DNA of 60,616 nucleotides from Verrucomicrobiota bacterium (lineage in GTDB: Bacteria > Verrucomicrobiota > Verrucomicrobiia > Limisphaerales > UBA11358), in the NCBI GenBank assembly GCA_021324235.1, contig JAJPJM010000157.1, forward strand, positions 1-60,616, written 5' to 3'. The notes beneath the pieces are model-generated. The model had not been told where the DNA came from. It searched no databases and saw only the letters and a list, made by a program, of their open reading frames with translations. Position numbers and translations under genes: made by a program. This document shows positions 14,785 through 34,780 of the stretch, one piece after another (the first letter of the stretch is position 1; each line of letters begins with the position of its first letter).

Positions 14785-15858
14785 ATGGACCTCAAACGGA
14801 TTTTCCTCGGGCTTTTGCTGGGACTCTTTTGCACGGCGGTTCCAACGCTTTTCGCGGATGACACAATGTCATCCGCCATCAAGCCGGTCACGCCGAACGC
14901 CTCGCCGGAGGCGGTGCAATTGCTGCAATATCTTTACAGCATTTCCGGCAATCATACGCTGGCCGGCCAGCATGCCGTGCCGCTGTTGCGTTCCGCGCGG
15001 CTGGTCGAGGCGCAACGCGCCGGCGGGCATCCCCCGGCGGTTTTTGGCATGGATTTCGGTTTCGATTCGCCCGGCACCTGGGACGGCATCAACTTCCGCC
15101 AGCAAATTGTGGACGAAGCGATCCAGAAATATCACGAAGGCTACGTGATTGTGCTCATGTGGCATGCAGTGCGGCCGATCGACGATGAGCCGGTGAAATT
15201 CAAGGATTCCATTCAGGGCCGGTTGACCGATGAACAGTGGCACGACTTGATCACGCCGGGAACGGAAATCAACGAACGCTGGAAATCACAGGTGGATGTC
15301 ATCGCGTGGTTTCTCAAGCAATTGCGGGACGCGCACGTGCCGGTGCTCTGGCGGCCTTATCATGAGATGAACGGCGGCTGGTTCTGGTGGGGCAAAAAAC
15401 CCGGGGACGACGGTTATAAAAAACTGTATCGGATGCTGTTTGACCGGCTGGTGAACTTTCACCAGCTGAATAATTTGATCTGGGTCTACGGTGCCAACGA
15501 AGTGACACCGCCGAATGTGGATCCCTACGACACCTATTATCCGGGAGATGACGTCGTGGATGTTCTCGGCACGGACATTTACCACACGGGCTTTGCCCGG
15601 AACCAATACGACCAGTTGCTGGCCCTGGCCAAAAACAAACCGATTGCCCTGGCGGAGGTGGGGGCCGCCCCGTCGCCGGAAATTTTAAAGGAACAACCGC
15701 GCTGGACCTGGTTCATGGTTTGGGACGATCCCACCGAAGGCGGAGCCACGGCGCGGGGAATACGCGCCACCTACAACTGCGACCAGGCCATTACGCTGGA
15801 CCGGCTGCCCTGGGTGGAGGCGGGACATCCGGCCGACCACGCGTTCACCCAGCCGTAG
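14785..15858 (+). CDS. Secreted GH26 glycoside hydrolase (beta-mannanase-like)
   Basis: Signal peptide; LWRPYHEMNGGWFWWG, YYPGDDVVDVLGTDIY, KPIALAEVG. Confidence 0.92.
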   Translation: MDLKRIFLGLLLGLFCTAVPTLFADDTMSSAIKPVTPNASPEAVQLLQYLYSISGNHTLAGQHAVPLLRSARLVEAQRAGGHPPAVFGMDFGFDSPGTWDGINFRQQIVDEAIQKYHEGYVIVLMWHAVRPIDDEPVKFKDSIQGRLTDEQWHDLITPGTEINERWKSQVDVIAWFLKQLRDAHVPVLWRPYHEMNGGWFWWGKKPGDDGYKKLYRMLFDRLVNFHQLNNLIWVYGANEVTPPNVDPYDTYYPGDDVVDVLGTDIYHTGFARNQYDQLLALAKNKPIALAEVGAAPSPEILKEQPRWTWFMVWDDPTEGGATARGIRATYNCDQAITLDRLPWVEAGHPADHAFTQP

Positions 15859-17905
15859 CGGCATTGGAATCGATCGGCAGCAGGATGCGCACGGTACCGT
15901 GTTGGCCGGCCTGCGGCGGAACAATTTCAAGTTTGCCGTGGTGCGTCTCGATGATCTTCCGGCTTACGGTCAGACCCAGGCCCAGTCCGACATTGCGGGT
16001 GGTGAAAAAGGGCGAGGGAACCTTCTGCGCGGTTTCCGAAGTGAAGCCCGTGCCGTTGTCCTGCACTTCAATCTCCAGTTCGCGCCGGCCGGCGTGGCTG
16101 GGATTGGTGTGCAGGCGCACGCCGATTTTGGGCTCCTTGGGATTGGCCTGCAACGCGTTGAGCATGATTTCCGCCAGCGCATGTTTGAGGGCGGCCCGGT
16201 CGCCGGTGATGACGATGGGTTTGCCGCTGTCCTCGCACTGCAACTGGGCTTTTTCGGTGGGTTGATGCCTGCGTGCCTCCTGGTAAGCCTCTTCGATCAG
16301 GGGTTCGACCGGAAACGCCTGCGATTCCGGTTCGTTTTCCCGCGCCAGAAAACGCATCTGATTGAGCAAACGCGAGACGCGCTTGACGCCGTCGGCGAGC
16401 GCAAAGTCGAGCGACTTGCGGAACTCTGCGTCCCGGAATTTTTCCCCCAGCAACTGCTGGTGGGTGGAGAGCGGCACCATGGCGTTGCCGATTTCGTGTG
16501 CCAGCCGGTCGGCCATGGCCTTGATGAGGCGGAGATTGGCGGCTTCGACTTCCAAATGGCGCAACTGCTCGGTTTGGGTGAGGTCTTCCGCGGTGAGCAG
16601 GGCGGAAACCGGCACGGTGGAATTCCCCCGCTGAAACGGCACGACATTGACGCTATAAACGGAGCCCGGGGAGCTCTCGGGTTCGTAACGGAACGGGCCC
16701 ATGGCCGCGCCGGTGTGCAGGACCTGGTAGATCTTCGCGCCCAGCACCTGCGGCAAATCGCTGAACTCGAGTTCGCCGGTGCGCCGGTTTTTGTGGCCGA
16801 AATGCCGGCGCGCGGCTTTGTTGGCATGGAGCACCCGGAGGTCGCGCCCGACGACGACGCACGCGCTGCTGAGTTCGCGCAGCACGTCCGTCATCATTTC
16901 ATGGTTGCCGGCGAGCTGGTCATGCAACCAGATGTTGCGCAGGGCCAGGCCGACCTGTTCGAGCAATCGAAAGATCAGCTCCAACTCGGTGTTGACCAGC
17001 GGCTCGCCGGTGACCCGGCCGTCAAAAACGGCGACGCCCACGACGGTTTCGCGATCGAGCACCGGCACGGCGACCTGGGCGCCGAGCAATTCAAATTCCT
17101 TCTGGGCCTCGGCATCGGCCCGGGCTTCGTCGCTGTCGCGGCGGAGGATTCGGCCCAACCGGACCAGTTGCCCGCCGATGCCGGCCTCGAGTGACAGTTC
17201 AAAATGTTCGAGCAACCCCGAGGAAAGCCCAATGGCGGCGGTGGCATGCAGCCCGCGGTTCTGGCCCGGAGACAGGGTTTGGCCGAGCGGCAGCGCGGGA
17301 CGGTTCACGAAAATGGCGGCGCGATTGACGCTGAAGATTTCACGCAGAAACAGCAGGAATTGTTTGAGCATGGCCTCGGCATTCAGGGAATGCGTGAGGA
17401 TGGATGAAAAATCGCGCAGGACCCCCAATGTTTGCGCCGCGTTGACCGAGCGGGCGGAAGACGGTTCCACCGGACGCGAAAAGGCGGACGATGGCATCAA
17501 GGGGGTATGGATGGCCGGTTGACCGGTACGAGCCTGTTCGTATTTGGGGGTCGCCCACAGGCGTTCCAGCAGGGAACCCAGCAGGCGGGCGCGAACGGGC
17601 TTGGTCAGCACATGAGTGACACCGTGCAGAAAAGCTTCCTCCTCCCATTCGGACTGGCTTTCGGCGGTGTAGGCGATGATGGGACATTGGTTGTCGCGCC
17701 GACGAAGCCGTTCGATGATCCAGATTCCCTGAACCCCGATGAGGTCCATATCCAGAATGCACGCGCTAATCAGCCCGTGAACCAGCAGGGGCTCGGCTTC
17801 CTCCACGCCGATCCGATGAACAACCCGATACTCCTCCCGGTTCAGACCCGCCTCAATCACTTCGGCGAAGTCTGGATGAGGAGACAACACCAAAATGGTT
17901 TTCAT
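15845..17905 (-). CDS. Cytoplasmic REC-GAF-PAS-histidine kinase
   Basis: Atypical N-terminal receiver, GAF- and PAS-like middle, AHEIGN H-box, NALQA, DNGTG, GLGLGL. Confidence 0.9.
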   Translation of the reverse strand: MKTILVLSPHPDFAEVIEAGLNREEYRVVHRIGVEEAEPLLVHGLISACILDMDLIGVQGIWIIERLRRRDNQCPIIAYTAESQSEWEEEAFLHGVTHVLTKPVRARLLGSLLERLWATPKYEQARTGQPAIHTPLMPSSAFSRPVEPSSARSVNAAQTLGVLRDFSSILTHSLNAEAMLKQFLLFLREIFSVNRAAIFVNRPALPLGQTLSPGQNRGLHATAAIGLSSGLLEHFELSLEAGIGGQLVRLGRILRRDSDEARADAEAQKEFELLGAQVAVPVLDRETVVGVAVFDGRVTGEPLVNTELELIFRLLEQVGLALRNIWLHDQLAGNHEMMTDVLRELSSACVVVGRDLRVLHANKAARRHFGHKNRRTGELEFSDLPQVLGAKIYQVLHTGAAMGPFRYEPESSPGSVYSVNVVPFQRGNSTVPVSALLTAEDLTQTEQLRHLEVEAANLRLIKAMADRLAHEIGNAMVPLSTHQQLLGEKFRDAEFRKSLDFALADGVKRVSRLLNQMRFLARENEPESQAFPVEPLIEEAYQEARRHQPTEKAQLQCEDSGKPIVITGDRAALKHALAEIMLNALQANPKEPKIGVRLHTNPSHAGRRELEIEVQDNGTGFTSETAQKVPSPFFTTRNVGLGLGLTVSRKIIETHHGKLEIVPPQAGQHGTVRILLPIDSNAATAG

Positions 17906-18031
17906 TGTACTCTGAGCCAGTGACGGCGATACTCAATTCCAGTCACTGCCGACGATAGTCCACAAATTGACCCAAAAGGTCAATCTAATCTTGCCGGAAA
18001 CGGGGGAATTTTCCCTCCCGGTTGCTAAAAA

Positions 18032-19288
18032 TCACGCGGAAGTTAGCAGTTTTTCCCACAAATTATCATTCAACAACGCTTTTTTGAGGAAATCCGTGTC
18101 GCTGGATGAAATGACAACCGGCTCCGGTTGAAGCGGCAGGTGAAGCGTGAAGGTGGTGCCTTTGCCGGGCTGGGTCCGGGCCTCAATCTTGCCGCCATGG
18201 TGATGCACAATGAAAAAGCAGGCCATCAAATGGATGCCATATTCGGACGGTTTGTGATCGTGCACCACAAACGGGTCGAAAACCGCGCGCAACGCGTCCT
18301 CCGGCAGTCCCGGACCGTTATCGTTGATGCTGGCGACGATTTCCGGCGTCGGGCCGTCCCGGAATTCCGCCGTGAGCGTGACGCGGCTGCCGGCCGGGAG
18401 CATCGCGAGTTCCTCCTTCAACAACAATTCAAACAGCCGGCTGAATTTCAACTTGTCCACCCGCAACAAGGGGAGCGTGTCCGCAATCTGGCTGTCCACC
18501 TGAATCCGCCGCGCCGCAAACGGCTCGTGCAGCAATTTTACCGCGTCGCCAACAATTTGATGCAGCGAGACCTGGTCGGTGAACGGCGCCGAGGGATTGG
18601 ACGACGCGGTCCAAAGGTCTTTGAGCAGCGAGTTGATTCGTTCGATCTGCGACTGGACGTTCTTGTGGTAATCCTTCCAGAAATCGGGATTGCGCAGGCC
18701 CTGTAAATCCGTCTTTTCCTCGCTCATTTTCACCGGCGCGAGGTCGAGGAAAGTTTTCACGGCCACCAGCGAATTGCGGATGTGATGGCTCAAGCCGGCG
18801 GCCAGCAGTCCCAGGCTGACAATCCGGTCGGCGATCAGCATGTTGTGCAGGACGGACATTTTTTCGCGGAGCAACTGGTCGCGCTCGGCCTGCACGATGA
18901 AAAATTCCAGGCCGCGTTTCAGGGTTTGTTCCAGTTGCGGGGGATCCCACGGTTTGGAAACGTATTTGTAAATGGCGCCGGTGTTGACGGCGGCAATGGC
19001 CGCGTCCATGTCGGCATAGGCGGTGACCAGCACCCGGATGACGCGCGGCCGGAACTGGCGTGCGCGTTCCAGAAGCCACACGCCTTTTTCGCCGGGCATC
19101 CGCTGGTCGGTCATGAGCAGGCCGATTTCATCGGCGTGGTCTTCCAACAGCTTGAGGCCCTGCTGGGCGGTCGTCGCCGTCATGATGCGGAATTGCTCCC
19201 CGAACGCGCGCGTGAAGTTGGTCAATGACTTCTCTTCGTCGTCCACGTAAAGGACCGCGAATTTTTTATAGTCGTACAGGTTCTCCAT
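18032..19288 (-). CDS. REC + degenerate histidine-kinase-domain protein (PhcR/PhcQ-like)
   Basis: LYVDDE, TDQRMP and KPW receiver; SHHIRNSL H-box; N and G2 boxes degenerate. Start MENLYD overlaps the upstream stop. Confidence 0.88.
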   Translation of the reverse strand: MENLYDYKKFAVLYVDDEEKSLTNFTRAFGEQFRIMTATTAQQGLKLLEDHADEIGLLMTDQRMPGEKGVWLLERARQFRPRVIRVLVTAYADMDAAIAAVNTGAIYKYVSKPWDPPQLEQTLKRGLEFFIVQAERDQLLREKMSVLHNMLIADRIVSLGLLAAGLSHHIRNSLVAVKTFLDLAPVKMSEEKTDLQGLRNPDFWKDYHKNVQSQIERINSLLKDLWTASSNPSAPFTDQVSLHQIVGDAVKLLHEPFAARRIQVDSQIADTLPLLRVDKLKFSRLFELLLKEELAMLPAGSRVTLTAEFRDGPTPEIVASINDNGPGLPEDALRAVFDPFVVHDHKPSEYGIHLMACFFIVHHHGGKIEARTQPGKGTTFTLHLPLQPEPVVISSSDTDFLKKALLNDNLWEKLLTSA

Positions 19289-21950
19289 GTTCCATTTCCA
19301 GTTCGCTAATTGGTTTGGCTTGGGTGGGGAAATCCAGGGTAAATTCGCAGAATCGGCCGACCTCGGTCTGCACCGAGATGTGTCCGCCGAATCCCCGCAC
19401 AATCCGATGGCAAATACTCAAGCCCAGCCCCATGCCCTCGCCCACTTCCTTGGTGGTAAAAAACGGATCAAAAATCTTGTCCAGGTTCTTTCGCTCGATG
19501 CCCGGACCGTTGTCGCGAATGACGAGGAGACTCCGCTCGCCTTCCATCCGGCCCTCGATCGAAATGGCCGGCGGCTCGTTCCCAAATTTCTTTTCCCGCA
19601 TCGCGTCGAGTGAATTCTGCAACAAATTTACCAAAACGTGAATCAATTTATTGCGGCTGGCCAGGATGATCTGGCCCGGAACGATTTTCAGTTCGACCGC
19701 CACCTTGTCCTTCCATTCGCCGGCCAGAAACCGCAGTGAGGTATTCACCGCTTCGGCCACGTCCACCAGTTCGGCCGGTCCGGCTTCGGGGTGCGTGAAC
19801 ATGCGCAAATCGGACACGATATTGCGCACGCGCTTCATGCCTTCCTCGATGTCACTCAGGATTTCCTCGTACTCCTGGCGTTCCTCCGGCGTGAAGTGTT
19901 TGCACTTGTTGCGCAGGGCGAAGAGGCCCGTCGTGGCGAAATTGAGCGGATTGTTGATTTCGTGGATGATGCCCGCGCTCATGCGGCCGAGCGAGGCGAG
20001 CTTCTCGGACTGCACCAGCTGGAGTTCCGTTTCCTTGAGTTGATCGATGGTGGTGGACAGCGCCTGGTTTTGCTTGGAGAGTTTGCGCCGGGAATCGTAG
20101 GATTCAACGAGGTTTTTGATGCGCGCGTGCAGTTCGGTGGACGAAAAAGGCTTGGCCAGAAAATCATTGGCCCCCAATTCCAGCGCGTTGAATTTGGTTT
20201 CCTCGTCCGCGCGCGCCGTCAGCAAAATGATCGGCACGGCGGCAGTCTCCTCGCGTTTGCGCAACTCCCGGCACACAGCCAGACCATCCATCTCCGGCAT
20301 CATCATGTCCAGCAAAATGATGTCCGGCAGAAATTGGGTGGCCTTTTCCATGGCCTGGATGCCGTCCGCCGCCTCCAACACGTCGTAATCCTGGTCGAGT
20401 TGCGAACGCAAAAAGCGCCGCATGTCCGGTTCGTCGTCGGCCACCAGGGCCACGGGCCGCCGGCCGCGCTTGCCCAGTTCCACCGGTTTGGCCGCGCCGC
20501 GCAGGGACGCCATGGCCGGAAACAGTTCCGCGCGCCGGTACAAATTGGCCAGCCATTCCTCCGAGGCGACCACGCCGGTTTCCGCCGCCGCGCCCGGTTG
20601 GGTTTTGGGCGGCAATTCCGCCTTTTGATATGGCAACTGCACGGTGAAGGTCGTGCCTTTGCCTTCCTGGCTTTCCACGACCACGCGGCCGTGCATCATC
20701 TCGGTCAATTCCTTGACCAGCGCCAGCCCGATGCCGACGCCCTGATATCGGCGTTGGGCCGAACTGTCCGCCTGCCAGAAACGGTCGAACACAAACGGCA
20801 GGTTTTTTTCGGCGATGCCGATCCCGGTGTCGCTGACGACAAAAACGAGTTCTTCGCCGCGTTTTTCCGCCCGCAACTCCACACGCCCGTCGGCCGGCGT
20901 GAATTTCAGCGCGTTGAACAAGAGATTGAGCACGATTTTTTCCAGTTTATCGGCGTCGGTGGCCGCCACGCCCAGGCGCAGGTCGGTGTAGGTTTCCAGC
21001 TTGATGTGTTTGTCCTCCGCCACCTGCCGGGCCGCGCTGGCCAGGCCCTTGATGAAGTCGGCGACCTCCATCGGTTCGTTTTTGATTTCCATCCGGCCGG
21101 CTTCAAGGCGGATAAGGTCGAGCAGATCATTGATCAATTTCAACAGCCGCATGCCGTTGGAGTGCATCGTGAGGAGCAAATCATGAACGCTGTCGTCGAC
21201 CTTGCCGGCAAAGCGCTGGAGCAGCGTTTCCAGCGGTGAGAGCAGCAACGTGAGGGGCGTGCGCAATTCATGGCTGATGTTGGCGAAGAACCGGCTTTTG
21301 AGCCGGTCCAGTTCCACCAGTTTCCGGTTGGTTTCCTCCAGTTCCTGCCGGTTTTTGTTCAGCTCATAGCGCAGGGTGAATTCACGGAAACGCAACTGGT
21401 TGAACAGGCGATTACCGCAAATCACGATGATTCCCGTCAGCACGAGGAAATAAAGATTGTTAAAAATCGACCCGAACCTTTCGGTCTCCAGCCCTTTGAT
21501 GACACAGGACGCCAGGTACATGGCGATGACAAAGCCCACCGCGAGAAACGTTTCCAGCATGCTCCAGTGGCCCACGGCGCTGACGGCCAGCAGGATGAGA
21601 TTCAAACCGGCATAGTAGGGGGAGGCGGAACCGGTCTCATAAACCATCCACGTGATGAAAAACGCGGGGAGAATCACAATAAACAATCCCACCACCGGAT
21701 AATGTTTGCGGGCGATGGCGGTGGAGTGCAGCGACCAGATGACAATCACCAGCAGCGAGCACAGGAGTCGCAGCTCCAGGAACTCCACCAGGTGTTCGGG
21801 ATAAACAAAATAATCGAGTACGATTCCCAGCGGCATCAATACAAATACGAGGGCACAGGCGAGCCGGCCGGTGCTGATGCGCACCTCCCGTTCGTTGGCC
21901 AAAAAGGCCTCCCAAAATTCAGGCTCTTTCAAATTTTGATTATTGGCCAT
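19266..21950 (-). CDS. Membrane sensor hybrid kinase TM-HK-REC-HK (PhcS-like)
   Basis: About 6 N-terminal TMs; SHELRTPL...GVGIGL; VADDE/LLDMMMP; IHEINNPL...GMGLGL. Start overlaps the methyltransferase stop. Confidence 0.92.
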   Translation of the reverse strand: MANNQNLKEPEFWEAFLANEREVRISTGRLACALVFVLMPLGIVLDYFVYPEHLVEFLELRLLCSLLVIVIWSLHSTAIARKHYPVVGLFIVILPAFFITWMVYETGSASPYYAGLNLILLAVSAVGHWSMLETFLAVGFVIAMYLASCVIKGLETERFGSIFNNLYFLVLTGIIVICGNRLFNQLRFREFTLRYELNKNRQELEETNRKLVELDRLKSRFFANISHELRTPLTLLLSPLETLLQRFAGKVDDSVHDLLLTMHSNGMRLLKLINDLLDLIRLEAGRMEIKNEPMEVADFIKGLASAARQVAEDKHIKLETYTDLRLGVAATDADKLEKIVLNLLFNALKFTPADGRVELRAEKRGEELVFVVSDTGIGIAEKNLPFVFDRFWQADSSAQRRYQGVGIGLALVKELTEMMHGRVVVESQEGKGTTFTVQLPYQKAELPPKTQPGAAAETGVVASEEWLANLYRRAELFPAMASLRGAAKPVELGKRGRRPVALVADDEPDMRRFLRSQLDQDYDVLEAADGIQAMEKATQFLPDIILLDMMMPEMDGLAVCRELRKREETAAVPIILLTARADEETKFNALELGANDFLAKPFSSTELHARIKNLVESYDSRRKLSKQNQALSTTIDQLKETELQLVQSEKLASLGRMSAGIIHEINNPLNFATTGLFALRNKCKHFTPEERQEYEEILSDIEEGMKRVRNIVSDLRMFTHPEAGPAELVDVAEAVNTSLRFLAGEWKDKVAVELKIVPGQIILASRNKLIHVLVNLLQNSLDAMREKKFGNEPPAISIEGRMEGERSLLVIRDNGPGIERKNLDKIFDPFFTTKEVGEGMGLGLSICHRIVRGFGGHISVQTEVGRFCEFTLDFPTQAKPISELEMEHGEPVRL

Positions 21951-23469
21951 GGTTCGATTTCCGGGCTTCCAGGAATATGTTAATCCCGGTTTTGTCGCTG
22001 CGAATCCGAACTTCGTCCTCGGGAATGATGTCGACACACACCTGCTTCAGCTGGGCGGCGTCGCGATAGATCAAATGCCAGTCCAGGATGAGTTCCAGAC
22101 TGCCCCGATTGGAAGTGAGGGGGGTTACATTGGTGACGACCAACAATCCGCCGGGCGCCAGCCATTGGTAAAAGATGCTCATCATCTGTTTGCAGGCGTG
22201 GTCGGTCAAATAATCAAACAGGCCGGCGCAATAAATGAAATCGTACTCATTTTCTGTTTTATCGCCGGGCGCAACCGGCCGGTGCCCCTCTTTGAGCAGT
22301 TGGAAAACGCTCTTCTTCAGGTACTGGACGGAGGTGCGCCACCCGAACCGTTCCTTGATGCTGTTGATTGCCTTTTGAGTGTGGGCCAGGGTTTCACTGT
22401 CGAAATCCACCAGCGTGAATTCGACCTGGTCGCTCAAGGGGGAGTAATCGAGAAATTGCTGCACCTCGACCGCCGGGCCGCAGGCGAAGTTGAAGATCCG
22501 GGCCTTTCGCTTTTCGCGCCCGACCCGCAGCGTTTCCATCTCAATGCATTTGGTGAGATACGTCAGCCGGTTGCGATGCGCCGCCGCCGAGCCTTGTTGC
22601 ACCAGCCAGACGTTGAAAATTTTGGCGAACAGGGAGGCGCCTTCCTGGGCATTTCGGGTCATCATGTTGACCATCTCATAATCCCCGGCGTAGCCCAGGG
22701 GTTTTTGATAGGCGCGATGGGCGAACGGCGCACAGAGCACAATCGGATGCAGATGCCTTTGGATGTAATTGCGATGGGCGGGCCGCGCTCCTTCCTCCAG
22801 TTTTTTGGCGATCAATTCAAACCGTTCGAACAAGCCGTTGATCATGGCGATGATGCCCGGGCTTGTTTTTTTGATGACCGCCTGCTCCAGGGGCGCACGC
22901 TTGTGTTCCGGCAGGGAATGAATGCCCAATTCGACCTGCTCCAGCCAGATCCGCAGGTCGGTCAAAAACATCTCGATGTCCGTCACCGCTTCCTTGAATT
23001 CCGGAAGCACCCGGTAGAGTTTTTGCCATTCCTTGACAAACTTGTTGAATTCCTCCACGAGTTGGTCGTCGCATTTCACAACCAAATCAGCGCTCAGGTC
23101 GAGCCACCGGGCATCATCCAGGGTGGCTTGGCACACCATTTTTGACCCGGCATCCACCACGCTGCTGACGACGGCGCGTCCCGAATAAACCTTTCGGGTC
23201 TGGAGAATAATGTTGAATTCATCAATGGCTTCGGAGACCCGGGGGGCGGTACCGGGGTTGTACAGTTCAAAGACGGCGTGGTGGCGTGTCACCCGTACCG
23301 GCACCCCTTGCAATTCCAGACCGTCATGGGTTTGAAACATGACCCGGCTTTCCTTGAGTTCGGATGCCGGCACGTCGGCGGGCGGGGGCGGCGCGGTCCG
23401 TTTTTTGGATGACTGCAACAGGCCGCCGGCCCCGTTCCCATTTCCGTTGCCTTGAGGAACCTTTCTCAT
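21940..23469 (-). CDS. Class I SAM-dependent methyltransferase, PhcB-like
   Basis: RAYQKPLGYAGDYEMVN, FNFACGPAVE, YDFIYCAGLFDYL, LAPGGLLVVTN, LDWHLIYRD; first gene of the kinase operon. PhcB similarity is recalled, not computed. Confidence 0.8.
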   Translation of the reverse strand: MRKVPQGNGNGNGAGGLLQSSKKRTAPPPPADVPASELKESRVMFQTHDGLELQGVPVRVTRHHAVFELYNPGTAPRVSEAIDEFNIILQTRKVYSGRAVVSSVVDAGSKMVCQATLDDARWLDLSADLVVKCDDQLVEEFNKFVKEWQKLYRVLPEFKEAVTDIEMFLTDLRIWLEQVELGIHSLPEHKRAPLEQAVIKKTSPGIIAMINGLFERFELIAKKLEEGARPAHRNYIQRHLHPIVLCAPFAHRAYQKPLGYAGDYEMVNMMTRNAQEGASLFAKIFNVWLVQQGSAAAHRNRLTYLTKCIEMETLRVGREKRKARIFNFACGPAVEVQQFLDYSPLSDQVEFTLVDFDSETLAHTQKAINSIKERFGWRTSVQYLKKSVFQLLKEGHRPVAPGDKTENEYDFIYCAGLFDYLTDHACKQMMSIFYQWLAPGGLLVVTNVTPLTSNRGSLELILDWHLIYRDAAQLKQVCVDIIPEDEVRIRSDKTGINIFLEARKSNHGQ

Positions 23470-23478
23470 TTCACGGGT

Positions 23479-23511
23479 AGAATGGAACATTTTTTGAGCC
23501 AAAACAAAGCG
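23479..23511 (-). promoter_or_regulatory. Promoter/operator copy 1 upstream of the methyltransferase
   Basis: CGCTTTGTTTTGGCTCAAAAAATGTTCCATTCT, 28/33 identical to 25947-25979; TTGTTT-N17-CATTCT lies 9 nt before the ATG. Confidence 0.6.
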
Positions 23512-23669
23512 ATTCTCGCAGGTCATAACTGGCACCACCATTGCTATGTCCTGTCCACGCCGTTCGCAGGTGGATCTCCGGCCAGACTTATCGGATCGGA
23601 ACAGGTAAAACGGGTGCTTGTCTTGTTACGGGACAGGAATCGTATGGGATGTCGCAACACAATTACACT

Positions 23670-24917
23670 ATGAAAAATAAATCGAGCCGGTGGATTAAGT
23701 CAGGCTGGGACTGCCAGCCCGTCGGATTGACATTTTTGCTGGGATTGAGCTTCATTTTTTTGACCCCGACCAACTCGCCGGCGGGCGCGTTCCGTTTGCC
23801 GAACCAGGATCCCGAAGCGATTGCCCGCGGTGATGCCGAGGCGGCCACCGCCGACAATCCGTCCGCCATTTATTACAATCCCGCCGGCATCACGCAATTA
23901 ACCGGACAAAATGTTCGCGTGGGGCTTTACGTGATTTCCCCCGGTGAAAAATACACGTCCCCCTCCGGCGTCACGGCCACGGCCAAGTCGGACCCGGAAC
24001 CGGTTCCCCAGGTGTACTACGTGAATACCTTCACCAATATGCCGATTTCCGTGGGCGTGGGGATGTATTGTCCGTACGGCCTGTCGCTGGACTGGGGAGA
24101 CAACACGCCTTTTAACACCGTCGCTGAAAAGGGCAGTCTCTTATATCTGTCGTTCAATCCCGTCATCGCCTGGAAGGTTTGTCCCACGCTTTCCATCGGT
24201 GTTGGCCCCACCATCAATTATTCCAAGGCGACCGTGGAACAGGCGATTCCTCTCGGCAGCGGTCAATTAAAGTTCGACGGCGACGGTGTCGATTACGGAT
24301 TCAATGCCGGCATTTTATGGCAACCGCATCCGATGTGGTCGTTCGGTGTCAATTATCGTTCGGCCACGGACATCCATTATCAAGGCACCGCCTCCCAGAC
24401 CTTCGGCCCGCCTTTCCCGGCTTCAACCCAGACCAAGGCCTCGGTCAAGTTCCCGCAATTTGTCGTGGGCGGCATCTCATTCCGCCCGACCCCCGACTGG
24501 AATTTTGAATTTGACCTGGATTGGGCGGATTGGAGCAGCGTCAAGCAAATCGATTTTGAGAACACCCCGTTTGGCACCATTCCCCTGACCCTGGATTTCA
24601 AGTCCAGCTTCATGTATGAATTTGGCATTACCCGCCAGTTGGGCAGGGGCTACTTCGCCAGCGTCGGATATATTTACAACGAGAATTCAAGCCCGGACGC
24701 CAATTTCACCCCCCTGATTCCGGATGCCGCCTTGCAACTGGGCAGCCTTGGGTTCGGCCGCCATGGCAAAAACTGGGACTGGGCGATTGCGTATCACTTC
24801 GGCTACAACGGCGGGCGTACCATCAACAACCCGCCCACCGCTCCTGATTTTCCGGCAAATGGGACGTACAAGACGTTCAACAACGCCGTCGACGTGGCCG
24901 CGACCTTCAAATTTTAG
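23670..24917 (+). CDS. FadL/OmpP1-family outer-membrane long-chain fatty acid transporter (copy 1)
   Basis: Signal peptide; ATADNPSAIYYNPAG hatch motif, PYGL, C-terminal Phe. Confidence 0.9.
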   Translation: MKNKSSRWIKSGWDCQPVGLTFLLGLSFIFLTPTNSPAGAFRLPNQDPEAIARGDAEAATADNPSAIYYNPAGITQLTGQNVRVGLYVISPGEKYTSPSGVTATAKSDPEPVPQVYYVNTFTNMPISVGVGMYCPYGLSLDWGDNTPFNTVAEKGSLLYLSFNPVIAWKVCPTLSIGVGPTINYSKATVEQAIPLGSGQLKFDGDGVDYGFNAGILWQPHPMWSFGVNYRSATDIHYQGTASQTFGPPFPASTQTKASVKFPQFVVGGISFRPTPDWNFEFDLDWADWSSVKQIDFENTPFGTIPLTLDFKSSFMYEFGITRQLGRGYFASVGYIYNENSSPDANFTPLIPDAALQLGSLGFGRHGKNWDWAIAYHFGYNGGRTINNPPTAPDFPANGTYKTFNNAVDVAATFKF

Positions 24918-25939
24918 ACCGGCATCTTTCGCCAGAAAAACGTGGTGGGATCGGCCAGCCCGCTCGCCAGGTCCATTTCAATTTCCTTGACCCAATTCTG
25001 CACCCAGGCCCGGGCCACCACGGGATTGGTGGTCAGTTCCGGGTGCGCCTGCATCGTCACGCTTAACCGGTTCTGGAAGGTGATGCATCCGGCGCCCACC
25101 ATCTGGCAGCGCAACACCGGCGGACAAAAAAGCCAGCTGCCCAGCGACTCCGGCCGGGTGATTTCCTTTTGGGCGTCCCAGTCGCCCAGGTTCGAAAAAC
25201 TGCCCAGGTTCCACTGCGACGTGGCCCGTTCCCGGGTGATTAAAAACTTCCGCATCCCCTGCGTCATCACCCGGCTGACATAGCTGGCGTACCAATTGGC
25301 CCAATGCTCGCGCCGCCGCAACGCCGCGTAAATGTTCCGGTGAATGTCGTGCGGAGTTTCATAGGACCTGACTTTGACGCCGACGTAACTTGAATAGTTG
25401 GCCGTGTCCCGGTCCCGCACCAGTTTGCCGCGCAGATTCACCGGGATCATCCAGGGCACCACCGACGATTGATCCTCCAAAAAGGGCCGGATGGCCTTGG
25501 TCAGATGTTTCAGCAGAAAGGAATTGATCGTGATGCCGGCCATGCGGCAGACGCGCCGCATCTGCATCGTCGCCAGTTCGTCGAAGACGTGCCAGGCCAC
25601 CGCCGGGGGCGGTTGCGGGCTGAGTTTGCTGACGGCATCCAGGGGCAGCCATTTGACGTGCCGCCGGGGCCCCAAAAATCCCGGCGCCAGCTTCAGCACG
25701 GAAAGCATGGACGGCTCCGCCGGGTATCGGATTTGCGGCAGCCGGCCGAGGGTGACTCCCTGTTGCCGGAGAATGTGCGCCAGACCGCCAATCCCGTCGA
25801 AGTCGGTATGACGCAAAAAGGTCCATTGCGGTTCGGTCGCCCCGGACGGAATCTGGCCGAAGCGAATGCCGATGTATTCGCCCAGTTCCTCCGCGGCGAG
25901 AAACCACAGGTTGATGCTGTCAACATCTTGCTGGCTCAT
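24914..25939 (-). CDS. CoA-dependent acyltransferase-fold protein (HxxxDG; PapA5/AATase-like)
   Basis: HTDFDG catalytic motif, IPVNLRG, FSNLG; ATG 25939 chosen. Confidence 0.72.
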   Translation of the reverse strand: MSQQDVDSINLWFLAAEELGEYIGIRFGQIPSGATEPQWTFLRHTDFDGIGGLAHILRQQGVTLGRLPQIRYPAEPSMLSVLKLAPGFLGPRRHVKWLPLDAVSKLSPQPPPAVAWHVFDELATMQMRRVCRMAGITINSFLLKHLTKAIRPFLEDQSSVVPWMIPVNLRGKLVRDRDTANYSSYVGVKVRSYETPHDIHRNIYAALRRREHWANWYASYVSRVMTQGMRKFLITRERATSQWNLGSFSNLGDWDAQKEITRPESLGSWLFCPPVLRCQMVGAGCITFQNRLSVTMQAHPELTTNPVVARAWVQNWVKEIEMDLASGLADPTTFFWRKMPV

Positions 25940-25946
25940 GGCGGCG

Positions 25947-25979
25947 TGAATAGACCATTTTTCGCGCCAAAACAAAGCG
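25947..25979 (-). promoter_or_regulatory. Promoter/operator copy 2 upstream of the acyltransferase
   Basis: CGCTTTGTTTTGGCGCGAAAAATGGTCTATTCA; TTGTTT-N17-TATTCA lies 7 nt before the ATG. Confidence 0.6.
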
Positions 25980-25993
25980 TTTTTTGCCGGAAT

Positions 25994-27283
25994 TTAGAAA
26001 TGCATCCCCACTGTCACCAACACCGCATGGCTGATAAATTTGTAGGTGCCATCGGCTGACTGGCCGGCATTCAATGCGGGTTGGGATGATGGAGTACTGC
26101 CGGTCACCGTATGCGCCGGGCCGTAGCCAAATTGATAGGTGACATCGAAATCAAATCGTTTGCCATTGTATCCGGTGCCGGCGCTGAAGAAATGCCGGTC
26201 CAGGTCCGCCGCCAAAGGAGTATAATAAGCATCCGGCACCGAGTTCTGATTGAAAACATAGCCGGCGCTCACATGCCAGCCATTGTCAAAATACCGCGTG
26301 ACCCCGAATTCGTACATCCAGCTCGGTTGCCAATCGAGTATTACAGGAATGTCCTGCAGTACGACTGCCGCGACGTCCGGAGGAAGTGTTCCTTGGTGAA
26401 GAGTTACCGTTCCAAAACTGCTCCAGTCCGTATAGTCGGCATCAAACTCGAGATTCCATTTCGGTGTGGGTCGGTACGAAATGCCAAACACCGCAGTCAA
26501 AGGAAATGTAAAATCCGCCTGCGCCGGAAAACTCACCGGCGAGTTGAGCGCGGGAATTGGTTGTTGCTGAAATTCGGTATGGCCATCCATGGTAATGGTC
26601 GTCGCGCTGCGAAAGGTCGCACCGAGCGAAATCGTTTCGTACGGTTGCCAGAGCACGCCCAGATTGTAGCCCACGGTCCAGCCGTCGCCCTGGAAACGGA
26701 AAAAATTGGCGAAGGGCTGTTGATTGGCAAGCAGCCCCTGCTCCATGTCAATTTTCCCATAATCCACCATCACACCACCGCCGATGGAAAGGTTGGGCGC
26801 CAGCTTGAACGCGATCACGGGATTGGCTCGAAGGTATTTGAGTGAACCTTCCGTGGCGACCGAGCGAAAGCCGGTGTTCTGGGGCCAGTCCATGTTTCCC
26901 CCATAAGGCGCATAAATTCCCAGTCCCACGCTGACCGGAGCATTTTCAAACGAGTGGACGAGAAAAACCTGCGGGATGAAATTGTAATGCCTGCCGACGT
27001 CGTAGGTTTGGCCGGCATTCGGCTGCGTGTCCGGCGGCTGGAAGGTGGGGTCCACATAAATGCTGTAAAGTCCCGAGCGCAAATCATTGCCGGTGATCTG
27101 CGTGATGCCGGCTGGATTGTAATAAATGGCGGACGCGTTGTCCGCCGTGGCGGCAAAGGCTTCGCCGCGGGCGGTCGCAAAGCCATCCTGGCTCGCCAGC
27201 CGAAAACCGTTTGCCGAAACGTTCAAGACGAAAGCGCTCCAAAAGATTGGCGCCAGCAGCCTTGAAATATTGCTTCGGTTCAT
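25994..27283 (-). CDS. FadL/OmpP1-family outer-membrane transporter (copy 2)
   Basis: Signal peptide; ATADNASAIYYNPAG, APYGG, C-terminal MHF; paralog of 23670-24917. Confidence 0.9.
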   Translation of the reverse strand: MNRSNISRLLAPIFWSAFVLNVSANGFRLASQDGFATARGEAFAATADNASAIYYNPAGITQITGNDLRSGLYSIYVDPTFQPPDTQPNAGQTYDVGRHYNFIPQVFLVHSFENAPVSVGLGIYAPYGGNMDWPQNTGFRSVATEGSLKYLRANPVIAFKLAPNLSIGGGVMVDYGKIDMEQGLLANQQPFANFFRFQGDGWTVGYNLGVLWQPYETISLGATFRSATTITMDGHTEFQQQPIPALNSPVSFPAQADFTFPLTAVFGISYRPTPKWNLEFDADYTDWSSFGTVTLHQGTLPPDVAAVVLQDIPVILDWQPSWMYEFGVTRYFDNGWHVSAGYVFNQNSVPDAYYTPLAADLDRHFFSAGTGYNGKRFDFDVTYQFGYGPAHTVTGSTPSSQPALNAGQSADGTYKFISHAVLVTVGMHF

Positions 27284-27390
27284 GTTTACCGGTTTGTCGG
27301 TTCAACTCCTGAACGGGCACCGCAGGAGCGCATGATTGATGCGCCCGGGTCAGCAGGTTACCTGTCGCTTTGAGTCACGCCAGCAAATTT

Positions 27391-27481
27391 GGCAGTGTCA
27401 CGATTTGTAGGAGACGAGGTAACGAGTCATTTGGGGCGGCACTCCTTACGTCGTGCCCTACAGCCAAATTGGGACGCTACC
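27391..27481. mobile_element. 91-bp MITE with 8-bp target-site duplication
   Basis: Ends GGCAGTGTCACGATTTG / GGTAGCGTCCCAATTTG (13/17 match); GCAAATTT directly flanks both sides (27383-27390, 27482-27489); internal GTAG-type palindrome. Confidence 0.75.
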
Positions 27482-27551
27482 GCAAATTTCCCGGGAGGAC
27501 GAGCCATGCGAACCCCTGAAGCTGGCTTGCCAATAGTACGCCGTCTTTACT

Positions 27552-28751
27552 TTGGCGTGGTTTGAAGTAAGCTCTGGAAATGTGAAAAGCCTTATTCGAT
27601 TCACAGGCTATCTCTTGTTGTTCGGATTTGTCGTTTTTCCAGCACGAGCCGCGTTCACGTCCCTTTACATTTTCGGAGACGGCGTTTCCACCACGACCAA
27701 CAACATACAAACTGGCACGCTGGCCGCATATTATTATGGCTACCGTTTTTGTAACGGCCGGGTCTGGGTTGAACTGCTGGCGCAGCAACTCAATCTGACC
27801 AATAACTACTGGTACGCCACCAACAGCTCAAACCAGTTGTCCTACACCAACCTATCCGCTTCCAGTACCAACTGGTCCTACTCCAGCAACAACAACTCCT
27901 ACTTCGCTCATTCCAGTACCATTGTCGTGGCGGATGTCAGCAATTTTGTTGCGCCGGTGGATGTGTCGAACGACCTGTTCATCGTCTGGGTCAATGACGC
28001 TGACTTTGTTTATGACATGCAACATTACACTCCCTATGCCTCGAACAACATAGCCGTATGGACCAATGCCATCAACCAATCCATCTCCAATCATTTTACC
28101 ATCATTACGAACCTCTACGCCAAAGGCGTTCGCACCTTGGTTATGCCCGACGCGGTGGATATTACCGAGGTTCCGGACTATTCCGGTCGGACCGCTCCTG
28201 AAAAGACCTTCGTTCGCCAAAGGACCATTGATTTCAATACCGCTTTCACTGCTACATTAAGCAACGCGATGGTCTTGCACCCCGACCTAAAAATTTATCA
28301 GCCGGACTTTTTCTCCCTGCTCGACAACATACTGACGAATGCCGCCTCGTATGGGTTAACCAATGCCCTCACTGGCGGACATACCACCGATGCGCTGGAT
28401 GATGGCACGCTAGCGAACAAGTCCCTGAATGGTCCGGGAGCAAATTATATCTTCTGGGATTATTTGGATCCATCCGCGAAGGCCCAGGCCATCATGGTTG
28501 ATGTGGTCCAACAACTCATCGCGCCGCCGCAAATCCGACAAATCACATCGCAGAACGGCACCAATCAGTTGAACCTGACCAACGTGCCGGTTGGTTTGAA
28601 TGGGGTCGTGAATGGCAGCACCGATTTCGTGGGTTGGACTTCCGTGACCAATTTCAACAGCACCAACTCCGTGCAACCGGTTTTTATCCCGATTACCGGG
28701 CCGTTATGGTTTTACCGGCTGAATTTCCCCTTTGCCTGGACCTGGCCCTGA
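27552..28751 (+). CDS. Secreted SGNH/GDSL-fold protein with substituted catalytic residues
   Basis: LYIFGDGVS, RFCNGRVWVE, WVNDADF, LYAKGVRT, YIFWDYLDPS; start uncertain (GTG 27582 possible). Confidence 0.82.
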   Translation: MAWFEVSSGNVKSLIRFTGYLLLFGFVVFPARAAFTSLYIFGDGVSTTTNNIQTGTLAAYYYGYRFCNGRVWVELLAQQLNLTNNYWYATNSSNQLSYTNLSASSTNWSYSSNNNSYFAHSSTIVVADVSNFVAPVDVSNDLFIVWVNDADFVYDMQHYTPYASNNIAVWTNAINQSISNHFTIITNLYAKGVRTLVMPDAVDITEVPDYSGRTAPEKTFVRQRTIDFNTAFTATLSNAMVLHPDLKIYQPDFFSLLDNILTNAASYGLTNALTGGHTTDALDDGTLANKSLNGPGANYIFWDYLDPSAKAQAIMVDVVQQLIAPPQIRQITSQNGTNQLNLTNVPVGLNGVVNGSTDFVGWTSVTNFNSTNSVQPVFIPITGPLWFYRLNFPFAWTWP

Positions 28752-28758
28752 TTGGCAG

Positions 28759-28784
28759 GTAGGGACGCGCGGCTCGCGCGTCCG
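28759..28784. repeat. GTAG-type REP hairpin
   Basis: GTAG-GGACGCGCG-GCT-CGCGCGTCC between convergent genes. Confidence 0.6.
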
Positions 28785-28814
28785 TTTCACGAAGCGCCTC
28801 TTAATCGTACTGCA

Positions 28815-29888
28815 TTACGCCGTTGAAGCGGTCATTTCCCGCAATTTCCCCAGCGTTTCGTAACCCCAGCGCAGCATGCGTTCGGTGGTTTCCCAGCCGA
28901 TGCACGAGTCGGTGAGCGACACGCCGTAACGCAGCTCCTTCAGGTTGGTCGGAATGGGCTGGTTGCCTTCGTGGAGGTTGCTTTCGACCATCAGGCCGAT
29001 GAGCGGGCGCGAACCTTCGACGCGCTGCTGGATGACGCTGCGCCACACGTCCTCCTGCTTCGCGAATTGTTTGCTGGAGTTCGCGTGGCTGCAATCCACC
29101 ATCAGCACCGGCGGCAGCTTCTCCGCCTTCAATTTTTCCTCCGCCGCGCGGATGCTTTCGGCGTCGTAATTGGTCTTGGCGCGGCCGCCGCGCAACACGA
29201 TGTGCACGTGCGGATTGCCCGACGTGCGCACGATGCTCGTGACGCCGTCCTGGTCGATGCCCAGAAAACTGTGCGGATGCTGCGTGGCGCCCATCGCGTC
29301 GATCGCCGTTTGCAGGCTGCCGTCCGTGCTGTTTTTCAGGCCGACGGGCATGGACAGGCCGCTGGCCATTTCGCGGTGCGTCTGCGATTCCGTGGTGCGC
29401 GCGCCAATCGCCGCCCACGTCACCAGGTCCGCGGTGTATTGCGGCACAATCGGGTCGAGAAATTCCGTCGCCGTCGGCAAGCCCAGGCCGGTGATGTCGA
29501 GCAACAGCCGGCGCGCGATTTTCAGGCCGGTTTCGATGTCCTGCGACCCGTCCAGATGCGGGTCATTGATCAATCCCTTCCAGCCGATGGTGGTGCGCGG
29601 CTTTTCAAAATAGACGCGCATGACGATTTCCAGACGGCTGGCAAATTCCTGGCGCAAGGCGTTGAGGCGCGTCGCGTATTCCAGCGCGCCTTTTTCGTCG
29701 TGGATCGAGCAGGGCCCGACGACGACCAGCAGGCGCGGGTCTTCCTGCCGCAAAATGCGGATGATCCGCTCGCGGCTGCGGGCCACGGTGGCATTCGCGG
29801 CGTCGGTCGTCGGCAACTGCGCCTTCAATTCACGGGGCGTGAGCAGCCGGACGATCTCTTTGACGTGCAGGTCCTGGGTCCGATACAT
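28815..29888 (-). CDS. aroG: DAHP synthase, class I-alpha (AroF/G/H family)
   Basis: GPCSIHD, RVYFEKPRTTIGWKGLINDP, IGARTTESQTHRE, DCSHANS, SLTDSC. Feedback specificity cannot be assigned. Confidence 0.95.
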   Translation of the reverse strand: MYRTQDLHVKEIVRLLTPRELKAQLPTTDAANATVARSRERIIRILRQEDPRLLVVVGPCSIHDEKGALEYATRLNALRQEFASRLEIVMRVYFEKPRTTIGWKGLINDPHLDGSQDIETGLKIARRLLLDITGLGLPTATEFLDPIVPQYTADLVTWAAIGARTTESQTHREMASGLSMPVGLKNSTDGSLQTAIDAMGATQHPHSFLGIDQDGVTSIVRTSGNPHVHIVLRGGRAKTNYDAESIRAAEEKLKAEKLPPVLMVDCSHANSSKQFAKQEDVWRSVIQQRVEGSRPLIGLMVESNLHEGNQPIPTNLKELRYGVSLTDSCIGWETTERMLRWGYETLGKLREMTASTA

Positions 29889-33733: not shown

Positions 33734-34270
33734 ATGAGCAATCCCTACATTGGTGAAATCAGGATCTTTGCGGGCATTTTTGCGCCGGTGGGTTGGGCGT
33801 TTTGCGACGGGTCGTTACAGTCGATTTCGCAATATACGGCGCTTTTCCAGCTCATCGGCACGACTTATGGCGGTGACGGACAAACGACTTTTGCCCTGCC
33901 CAATTTGCTGGGCCGTCTTCCCTTGCATCAAGGCACCGATTCACAGGGCAATCGCTATGTCCTGGGTGAGAGTGGTGGCGCGGAAACCGTGGCCTTGGGT
34001 CCGACCCAGATCCCGGTTCATGCCCATGGAGTGCAGGCCAGTTCGGGCAGCGGCAGCGTCAACAACCCGGCGTATCGCATCGATTTTCCCGTGAACAATG
34101 TGTGGGCAAACTGGACCGGCAGCCAATATAGCGACCAGCCGCCAAACGCCCAGATGAACGCCGGCGCATTGACGACGGCCGGCAGCAATCTGGCGCATGA
34201 CAACCGGATGCCCTATCTGGCGGTCAATTTCATCATTTCCCTGTTCGGGGTCTTTCCGTCACAAACTTGA
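33734..34270 (+). CDS. Phage tail-collar domain protein (MdpB-like) 1
   Basis: PYIGEIR, APVGWAFCDG, LFQLIGTTYGGDGQTTFALPNL, FIISLFGVFP. Confidence 0.93.
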   Translation: MSNPYIGEIRIFAGIFAPVGWAFCDGSLQSISQYTALFQLIGTTYGGDGQTTFALPNLLGRLPLHQGTDSQGNRYVLGESGGAETVALGPTQIPVHAHGVQASSGSGSVNNPAYRIDFPVNNVWANWTGSQYSDQPPNAQMNAGALTTAGSNLAHDNRMPYLAVNFIISLFGVFPSQT

Positions 34271-34273
34271 GCC

Positions 34274-34771
34274 ATGTCATCGCCCTACCTGTCAGAAATC
34301 CGGATTATTTCCTTCAACTTCCCCCCCAAGGGTTGGGCGTTTTGCAACGGTCAGATTTTGCCGATCAACCAGAATCAGGCGCTCTTTTCGCTCTTGGGCA
34401 CGACCTACGGAGGCGATGGACGAACCACGTTTGCCCTGCCCAATTTGCAGGGTCGGGTGCCGATGCATATGGGCAATAATTTCATTCTGGGTCAGACCGG
34501 CGGCGAAACGGCGCATCTCCTCACCCTGTCGGAAATGCCGGGTCATACGCATCCGCCGGTGGTCAGTTCGAACCCGGCCAACCAGGGCAGTCCGCAAAAT
34601 AATTTTTTTGCGAATGGAAATCAGCCCGGTTTCAATTCCACACCGACCGGGACCCTGAATTCCGCCACCGTTGGTTCCGCCGGCGGCGGCCAGGCGCACA
34701 CCAACCTGCAACCCTTTCTGGTGCTGAATTTTGTCATCGCCTTGCAGGGAATTTTTCCGTCACAAAGCTGA
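34274..34771 (+). CDS. Phage tail-collar domain protein (MdpB-like) 2
   Basis: PYLSEIR, PKGWAFCNGQ, LFSLLGTTYGGDGRTTFALPNLQGR, FVIALQGIFP. Confidence 0.93.
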   Translation: MSSPYLSEIRIISFNFPPKGWAFCNGQILPINQNQALFSLLGTTYGGDGRTTFALPNLQGRVPMHMGNNFILGQTGGETAHLLTLSEMPGHTHPPVVSSNPANQGSPQNNFFANGNQPGFNSTPTGTLNSATVGSAGGGQAHTNLQPFLVLNFVIALQGIFPSQS

Positions 34772-34780
34772 ACAATATTT

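Follow-up and report, generated by a model that had tools for sequence, protein, structure and literature searches.

Several described systems bear on the locus analyzed here. Legionella PlaA, a solved SGNH enzyme with the catalytic triad S30/D279/H282, holds palmitate (C16) in a hydrophobic channel of about 20 Å beside that triad (10.1101/2023.03.24.534060). VolA of Vibrio cholerae is a surface lysophospholipase that is encoded with fadL and feeds the FadL channel (PMC3656444). The phc operon of Ralstonia comprises phcB, phcS, phcR, whose product combines a receiver with a histidine kinase (HK), and phcQ (PMC8578825). In this work we analyze a gene for an SGNH/GDSL-like protein, hereafter the esterase-like protein, located on the forward strand of contig JAJPJM010000157.1 (assembly GCA_021324235.1) from a Verrucomicrobiota bacterium of the order Limisphaerales. 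The whole analyzed stretch of this contig, 60,616 nucleotides in length, is referred to as the window.

The esterase-like protein is modelled with an SGNH fold and has lost the Ser, Asn and His of the catalytic set; the loss is conserved clade-wide under purifying selection, and the gene is linked to genes for a FadL-family channel and a methyltransferase. We read the protein, with middling confidence and from sequence comparison, as a non-hydrolytic lipid- or ester-binding partner of the FadL channel that may also handle the product of the methyltransferase. This reading would entail export, ligand binding, a partnership with FadL and, tentatively, an identity for the ligand. The gene and the parts of its product are as follows.

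27552..28751, forward strand: unbroken open reading frame (ORF) of the SGNH/GDSL-like protein, 399 codons counted from TTG
27582..27650, forward strand: predicted Sec signal peptide MKSLIRFTGYLLLFGFVVFPARA, read from the sequence, with cleavage after A-R-A
27651..28526, forward strand: SGNH/GDSL-fold domain, amino acids (aa) 34-325, delimited from the AlphaFold2 (AF2) model, Foldseek and a PDB profile search
27672..27701, forward strand: block I, FGDGVSTTTN, with Gly44 in the place of the nucleophile Ser
27810..27881, forward strand: clade-specific insertion between blocks I and II, aa 87-110 and rich in W/Y/N/S/T; seen in the alignment, with low AF2 confidence
27978..28007, forward strand: block III, FIVWVNDADF, with Ala150 where the oxyanion Asn would be and N148 D149 where Gly-Gly would be
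28452..28475, forward strand: block V, FWDYLDPS, with Asp303 kept and Asp306 in the place of the catalytic His
28527..28724, forward strand: C-terminal six-strand beta-sandwich, aa 326-391, last strand FYRL, from the AF2 model
28725..28748, forward strand: invariant C-terminal tail FPFAWTWP at the protein end, recognized by conservation among homologs

Translation probably begins from an in-frame GTG, at 27582 (MKSLIRF...), which gives a protein of 389 aa; it is the likelier start because the 389-aa database form P0002, 100% identical, begins there and because the start region is conserved in relatives. The mature N-terminus following MKSLIRFTGYLLLFGFVVFPARA would be AFTSLY, after an A-x-A site and without a lipobox Cys, and the consensus of the signal region across the clade reads ...LLFGLxVFPAQA followed by AFTSLY. 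The AF2 model places a helix at residues 11-25, in the signal-peptide region. These features point to Sec export of the protein, which is probably located at the cell surface or in the medium.

The substitutions fall in FGDGVS (aa 41-46, with the Gly44 codon GGC at 27681-27683), WVNDADF (aa 146-152) and FWDYLDPS (aa 301-308, with the Asp306 codon GAT at 28467-28469). Homologs were aligned with MAFFT: of 271 proteins, the 183 full-length ones (320-470 aa) were used, whereas P0002, being identical, and 87 rows outside that length range were left out. In the same alignment columns, canonical relatives read FGDSL[ST]DTGN, W[AS]GGNDF and FWDxxHPT, and therefore Gly44 occupies the column of the nucleophile Ser, Ala150 that of the oxyanion Asn and Asp306 that of the catalytic His. 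A hidden Markov model (HMM) profile alignment to the solved PlaA has a register identical to that of MAFFT and sets Gly44 opposite PlaA S30. The block III Asn, present in 12/12 canonical relatives, is Ala150 in the esterase-like protein; in block V, Asp303 is retained and the His of Asp-x-x-His is gone. The scaffold around these positions is common to the protein and its canonical relatives, both in the N-terminal half (F41, G42, D43, T48, R65, N68, G69, W72, E74) and beyond it (W146, D203, P208, G268, F301, W302, D303, P307). The block II Gly column holds Ala119 in the esterase-like protein and Gly in most relatives, in the least certain stretch of the alignment, which follows the clade-specific insertion. 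The first-pass annotation of this DNA, made from the letters alone, had reported a Ser to Gly change in block I, a block III without GxND and a His to Asp change in block V, all of which the MAFFT and PlaA profile alignments bear out; its description of intact scaffold motifs in an unbroken ORF likewise agrees with the 399 open codons and the shared scaffold residues. Relocation of the nucleophile was considered and rejected for S46 and T48, which belong to the scaffold inherited from canonical GDS(L)[ST]DT motifs, and S116 was rejected as a new nucleophile, being a clade switch from Ala to Ser yet having no available base.

The fold was assessed on an AF2 model built from a 94-row alignment (pLDDT 88.8, pTM 0.85), which comprises an SGNH-type alpha/beta domain and a six-strand beta-sandwich at 327-391 and assigns low confidence to the insertion loop (pLDDT < 50 at 87-91 and 93-101). 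Foldseek against the PDB returned 62 matches at E ≤ 0.001, and the matches listed are SGNH esterases or lipases; among them are ChoE (8d8y, E 2.3e-10, TMt 0.70), PlaA (8a24), TLH (8h0c), whose structure carries bound fatty acids, AnAE, EstA, VvPlpA and TAP. A profile search of PDB sequences gave matches ranging from 1.7e-33 to 1e-24, with PlaA at E 1.7e-33 and TLH at 2.7e-30. The model thus has the three-layer alpha/beta/alpha SGNH fold that characterizes the SGNH/GDSL superfamily, in keeping with the family assignment first made from motifs. The NCBIfam model NF045906, the PlaA equivalog, matches residues 18-323 at 42.5 bits against a cut-off of 450 (E 4.3e-11), and at the sequence level the protein is a homolog, not an equivalog, of PlaA.

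Homologs are numerous, with 1159 at E ≤ 0.001 in a word-index search and 1344 in an exhaustive search of 50%-identity representatives, 72 of the latter at E ≤ 1e-30. A search for paralogs in the protein's own genome returned itself as the sole match. To describe the clade we collected 80 related loci from a species-representative genome set. Across these species-level genomes, the canonical Ser/Asn/His set is found in 0/83 copies of the protein. Position 44 is G in 53 copies, S in 9, T in 8, A in 7 and C in 2, with 4 gaps; position 150 is A in 81, C in one and a gap in one; and position 306 is D in 72, N in 5, A in 3 and H in 2, with one gap. Over the 183-row alignment, the nucleophile and His columns pair as G/D 113 times, S/H 27, S/D 7, T/D 6, G/H 6 and G/N 4, plus rarer states. 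Three loci (L061, L079 and L080) carry two tandem copies of the esterase-like gene, which are 41-47% identical to the protein of the window.

Pairwise dN/dS against six relatives is 0.11-0.24, denoting purifying selection, and in the 120 closest homologs conservation reaches 97% or more in 92/399 columns. In that set A150 reaches 100% and D306 98%, at columns that have both switched from the Asn (12/12) and His (12/12) of the canonical rows, and the loops of the former active site rank with the best conserved parts of the protein. Several residues of the insertion (W87, Y88, S89, Y98, N100, L101, T106, N107, W108, S109 and Y110) are also at least 97% conserved there, in columns 87-110 that are mostly missing from canonical relatives. 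The substitutions are a selected, clade-level state; they are not chance, nor are they private decay, because they are clade-wide. Private decay, in which close homologs would keep GDS/DxxH, had been named in the first-pass annotation as the outcome contrary to its proposal, and neither the catalytic sets of the 83 copies nor the dN/dS values show it. The same annotation asked after conservation of GDG/DxxD in homologs, and here D306 (72/83) and G44 (53/83) prevail, both positions varying in the remaining copies.

These counts bear directly on whether the protein could be an ordinary, weakly active GDSL esterase that tolerates odd residues. Database entries for relatives are named 'phospholipase/lecithinase/hemolysin' or 'SGNH/GDSL hydrolase', some homologs carry a precomputed PF00657 match, and Ser occupies position 44 in 9/83 copies, all as such an esterase would lead one to expect. 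We nevertheless consider it highly improbable. No copy unites Ser44, Asn150 and His306, and the protein of the window has none of the three; Pfam PF00657 (Lipase_GDSL) gives no row for it even at E ≤ 1, and its score with the PlaA model, as stated, is 42.5 bits against 450. In one SGNH enzyme, moreover, replacement of the block III Asn by Ala is reported to have abolished all activity (PMC9487903).

The former active site appears to be a working site rather than a decayed one, because its loops are conserved with fixed N150A and H306D. The constraint upon it would concern shape and polarity more than a new catalytic residue, since position 44 admits only small residues (G/S/T/A/C) and position 306 varies among D/N/A/H. 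A working site may also be an enzymatic one, and the remodelled set of residues (D43, N148, D149, D151, D303, D306, S46, T47-T49) might catalyze another reaction, for instance a hydrolysis assisted by a carboxylate or a metal, or a transfer on a polar head group, with the substrate passing to or from FadL. The replacements are indeed non-random, A150 and D306 being joined by a block III that reads N-D-A-D almost throughout the 120 closest homologs; they lie within loops that are among the best conserved stretches, and active SGNH families with an unusual block II or III, namely SASA and PatB1, exist (PMC9487903). We judge such a different chemistry rather unlikely, however, given that the candidate residues vary in the same context (D/N/A/H at 306, D/N/E at 149, G/S/T/A/C at 44), that S46 and T48 are inherited from the scaffold and hence not new nucleophiles, and that no His/Cys metal site occurs among the conserved columns. 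The active SGNH families drawn on from that review keep the Ser nucleophile, and the typical ones the block V His too (PMC9487903). A binding site remains our preferred reading of the conserved loops, and the first-pass proposal of a secreted pseudo-esterase that binds an acyl ester is partly supported.

The origin of the clade was traced on a FastTree phylogeny of 103 rows, comprising all 63 full-length representatives and every third of the 120 close homologs, with SH-like support only. Proteins with the canonical S/GGND/DxxH set fall outside a 73-row clade that contains the esterase-like protein, and the basal members of this clade (P0171, P0153 and P0129) keep Ser and His and have already lost GGND (ACSD, ANSD and ANAD). 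The tree is rooted on one canonical row, so we infer the order of events: the clade would be nested in canonical relatives, and block III would have changed first. Within the clade, several sub-lineages have exchanged Ser for G/A/T and His for D/N/S/T, in either order, both GDS with DxxD and GDG with DxxH being found, and the crown group of the esterase-like protein (41 rows) is almost fixed for G/NDAD/DxxD, S or T occurring sporadically. The P0205-P0250 group, 17 rows that form a sister clade, represents another active-site variant of the same family, in which Ser and His are kept, block I reads FGHSW (Asp to His) in many members and block III is scrambled (GFWD, GPVD, YEGD and others). Canonical Verrucomicrobial relatives such as P0166, P0172 and P0180 are 27-34% identical to the esterase-like protein and share its C-terminal beta-sandwich (W362 100%, G348 75% and F387 73% over 12 rows); unlike the clade, they keep every catalytic residue.

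The C-terminal domain is modelled with a pLDDT of 84.4, and its comparison with PDB structures gives 0 matches at E ≤ 0.001 and only generic rows of fibronectin type III, immunoglobulin or carbohydrate-binding-module (FnIII/Ig/CBM) type. The last 80 residues find only two weak matches in their own genome (E 0.04 and 0.4). A six-frame scan of the genome for ORFs of at least 150 aa with [FY]YR[LMVI] at most 12 residues from the stop shows that 41 ORFs end in an FYR-type C-terminal domain. Many of them are very long; examples are 2461-4254 on the reverse strand of the window and, on the forward strand of other contigs, C141:13036-17385 and C47:1-3129. The FYR-type domain is probably a genome-wide C-terminal sorting or anchoring domain, and a generic export or anchoring module of this kind would put the esterase-like protein at the surface or outside. 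The clade's C-termini end in the pattern FYRLxFP[FY]xW[ST]WP-stop, in which F392, P393, W398 and P399 are conserved in all of the 120 closest homologs, and the strict tail pattern is found once in the whole genome.

The gene of the esterase-like protein has a conserved divergent neighbor, with which it shares an intergenic region.

25994..27283, reverse strand: FadL2, an outer-membrane channel of the FadL/OMPP1/TodX family (Pfam Toluene_X, E 9.3e-56)
27284..27581, not stranded: divergent intergenic region with FadL2, with conserved blocks in an alignment with 10 relatives

Among related loci with more than 2 kb upstream, 65/70 have a gene of FadL2 type adjacent, divergent and upstream, which substantiates the link to FadL put forward in the first-pass annotation. 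The assemblies with the 80 related loci were all obtained from soil, peat or bog, and most carry the label Verrucomicrobiota or Limisphaerales. The same block also appears in assemblies labelled Limnocylindrales, Sulfopaludibacter, Methylomirabilota, Acidoferrum, Acidiferrales or Bifidobacteriaceae (L002, L006, L034, L039, L047, L061, L070, L071 and L079); their matched flanking genes are about 58-90% identical to those of the window, and the odd labels probably reflect binning or naming errors. A sample of 301 genomes of the class, in which protein matches were counted at E ≤ 1e-10, contains the esterase-like protein in 12: ten belong to the order of the window, and the other two, outside that order, match weakly (27-28% identity). 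A FadL neighbor is present at 9/10 clade loci of this sample, the window's own locus included, and within the 1.5-kb flanks of 0/20 canonical-type loci, which belong to other orders and more distant genomes and include three with short flanks. Five sampled genomes have the methyltransferase described below on a different contig from the esterase-like gene, and in four of them (G255, G231, G291 and G036, the exception being G090) the best FadL2-like match stays beside the esterase-like gene. Pairwise distances of the esterase-like protein and FadL2 correlate over 34 loci (r 0.82), with a partial r of 0.59 given 3-deoxy-D-arabinoheptulosonate 7-phosphate (DAHP) synthase that 0/999 permutations reach; the support lent by this correlation is weak, because both are fast-evolving envelope proteins.

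The divergent spacer has a median length of 218 bp (68 loci), and the blocks conserved in 10 relatives include the palindrome CAGGTTACCTG at 27354-27364. Roughly 100 bp of the spacer in the window, at about 27390-27490, are missing from relatives. A consensus scan of 27200-28900 for promoters and terminators found 0 promoter-like sites (sigma-70 consensus) and 2 terminator-like sites, both inside the ORF and at chance level, and an Rfam scan of 27000-29000 gave 0 matches at E ≤ 0.1. As to transcript evidence, two sequencing runs contain this DNA, one of them perhaps its source, and no RNA run is listed.

Beyond FadL2 lies a cluster that centers on a methyltransferase and a phosphorelay.

15845-17905, reverse strand: REC-GAF-PAS-HK protein (Pfam domains, NCBIfam matches)
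18032-19402, reverse strand: REC+HisKA+HATPase protein (Pfam domains, NCBIfam matches)
19266-22037, reverse strand: hybrid HK (Pfam domains, NCBIfam matches)
21940..23541, reverse strand: 533-aa protein with a C-terminal class I S-adenosylmethionine (SAM) methyltransferase domain (Pfam Methyltransf_12/25, below cut-off)
23541..24917, forward strand: FadL1, a second FadL-family channel and accessory insert (Pfam Toluene_X, E 7.2e-45)
24914..25975, reverse strand: WS/DGAT/PapA5-like acyltransferase with an HxxxDG motif, RHTDFDG (PapA_C E 0.011 and TIGR02946 E 0.0011, both below cut-off)

In its architecture and in its context the 533-aa methyltransferase is PhcB-like. It shares 35% identity (E 3e-79, 86% coverage) with a methyltransferase of Paraburkholderia graminis that heads an operon continuing with an ATP-binding protein (kinase) and two response regulators, and its nearest Atlas clusters are those of 469-aa Pseudomonadota 'Regulatory protein'/SAM methyltransferases (score 0.99), which we treat as a lead only. 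The three two-component genes (15845..22037) lie downstream of the methyltransferase and are kept upstream of the clade gene in many loci. Where the flank exceeds 9 kb, a methyltransferase homolog lies upstream of the esterase-like gene in 45/55 loci, so that the co-occurrence with phcB-like genes proposed as a check on the first-pass annotation is found. FadL1 (46% identical to FadL2) and the acyltransferase are inserted between the methyltransferase and FadL2 (window 23541-25975), the acyltransferase being an accessory insert with a homolog in 16/80 related loci.

The order of a PhcB-like methyltransferase followed by genes for a hybrid kinase and a receiver+kinase protein is widespread in the class, the window offering an example at 15845-27283. 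By a reading of coordinates, the best FadL2-like match lies no more than 2.5 kb from the methyltransferase in 19 genomes. Because 15/19 of these have no match to the esterase-like protein, the methyltransferase, FadL and phosphorelay form an older core, to which the esterase-like gene is an add-on in some lineages. From its sequences the core looks like a Phc-like hydrophobic-signal module outside Proteobacteria with an outer-membrane channel as a core part. Elsewhere in the window, at 33734-38011, each of three tandem genes encodes a phage tail collar domain at the N-terminus (E 1e-26 to 1e-29), and the ORF after them, of 897 aa, has no Pfam match.

Taken together, the binding-partner reading would run as follows. 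The protein would descend from a secreted GDSL (lyso)phospholipase or esterase that lost ester hydrolysis by the SGNH mechanism. Its remodelled, highly conserved former active site would hold a ligand of hydrophobic or amphiphilic character, namely an acyl chain whose head is polar or an ester, and this ligand would be passed to or taken from the divergent FadL channel in the manner of a surface binding protein serving a transporter. Where the cluster is complete, the ligand might be the methyltransferase product, possibly a signal of the fatty-acid methyl-ester type.

A number of observations weigh against this reading. The FadL neighbor is missing in 5/70 loci, and in one sampled genome the FadL2-like and esterase-like genes are 73 kb apart. 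All loci belong to one order, and an unrelated downstream DAHP synthase is syntenic in 49/80 of them, so that inherited gene order may account for some of the linkage to FadL. All 12 sampled genomes matching the esterase-like protein hold the methyltransferase too, yet this co-occurrence across genomes carries little weight, because the methyltransferase is common in the order and far wider: its family is found in 61/301 class genomes, against 12/301 for the esterase-like protein. Finally, the substitutions lining the pocket (N148, D149, D306 and T47-T49) are polar or acidic, unlike what a purely lipid-binding site needs.

Carried further, these points would fit a surface, structural or adhesive role unrelated to lipids, with the neighborhood reduced to gene order inherited within one order. 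The origin of all 80 loci in related soil and peat genomes and the synteny of the unrelated DAHP synthase agree with such a role, as do the generic nature of the C-terminal domain, present on 41 ORFs, and the W/Y/N/S-rich insertion, which seems to resemble carbohydrate- or surface-contact loops. Against it, FadL stays with the gene in 4/5 genomes that have the methyltransferase cluster elsewhere; the divergent genes share a short, conserved spacer; conservation is concentrated in the former substrate site; and distances correlate with those of FadL2 beyond the DAHP synthase control. We therefore consider a lipid-unrelated role improbable, and keep the binding partner of FadL as the preferred reading.

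A more specific version of that reading would make the protein an extracellular carrier or co-receptor dedicated to one signal, of the fatty-acid methyl-ester type and produced by the PhcB-like methyltransferase. The carrier would hold the ester intact, keep a poorly soluble signal in solution and pass it through FadL to the phosphorelay. We hold this proposal to be improbable; if true, it would mean Phc-type cell-to-cell signalling outside Proteobacteria, with a channel and a carrier not known in Ralstonia. Given the frequent link to the PhcB-like cluster, the hypothesis of lipid-ester signalling can be put to the test in uncultured soil bacteria.

The clade is also relevant to annotation and to enzyme evolution. 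Databases label its members phospholipases, hemolysins or GDSL hydrolases; because these database-named lipases lack the catalytic set in all 83 copies, lipase and metabolic inventories of soil and peat Verrucomicrobiota probably overcount. The clade and its relatives offer a graded natural series, from the full S/N/H set through proteins that have lost block III to proteins that have lost Ser and/or His, and this series shows an SGNH hydrolase turning non-hydrolytic while its former active site stays under selection. The tight pairing with FadL suggests that a binding protein and a channel act together on hydrophobic molecules at the outer membrane.

Compared with described enzymes, the esterase-like protein is closest to the PlaA/TLH/ChoE/EstA group (COG3240 type), with which it has the fold in common (Foldseek E about 1e-10, TMt 0.6-0.7) as well as FGD in block I, RFSNG-W-E, LPD...P in block IV and FWD..xPT in block V; the group is secreted, as is the esterase-like protein by its predicted signal. 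The clade differs from the group in the Ser to Gly, Asn to Ala and His to Asp replacements, in the 24-residue insertion and in its FadL neighbor (65/70 loci), and its beta-sandwich and invariant tail have no counterpart in the solved enzymes, whose alignment to the profile stops at about residue 290.

Receptors built on the alpha/beta-hydrolase fold, such as GID1 and the neuroligins, are a textbook parallel for a hydrolase scaffold of this kind. Within the SGNH fold, CtCE2 uses its active site for cellulose binding (PMC2661963) and ZfL2-1 ORF1p has a lipid-binding SGNH esterase domain (PMC3905857). Both are precedents for non-catalytic binding by an SGNH site, and both keep catalytic residues and activity, unlike the present clade. 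A search of the literature outside subscription journals found, among the papers listed, no description of this clade or of a non-catalytic SGNH family.

The likeness to VolA and FadL lies in a secreted or surface protein, putatively lipid-handling in the present case, that is paired genetically with FadL. VolA is a lipoprotein and an active lipase, whereas the esterase-like protein has neither lipobox nor catalytic residues, and the likeness is a functional one. As regards Phc, no esterase-like or FadL component is described for the Ralstonia system, and one literature search aimed at PhcB and FadL together gave a single, unrelated paper. The order phcB-phcS-phcR is mirrored in the window, where the methyltransferase is followed by a sensor kinase and a receiver+kinase protein.

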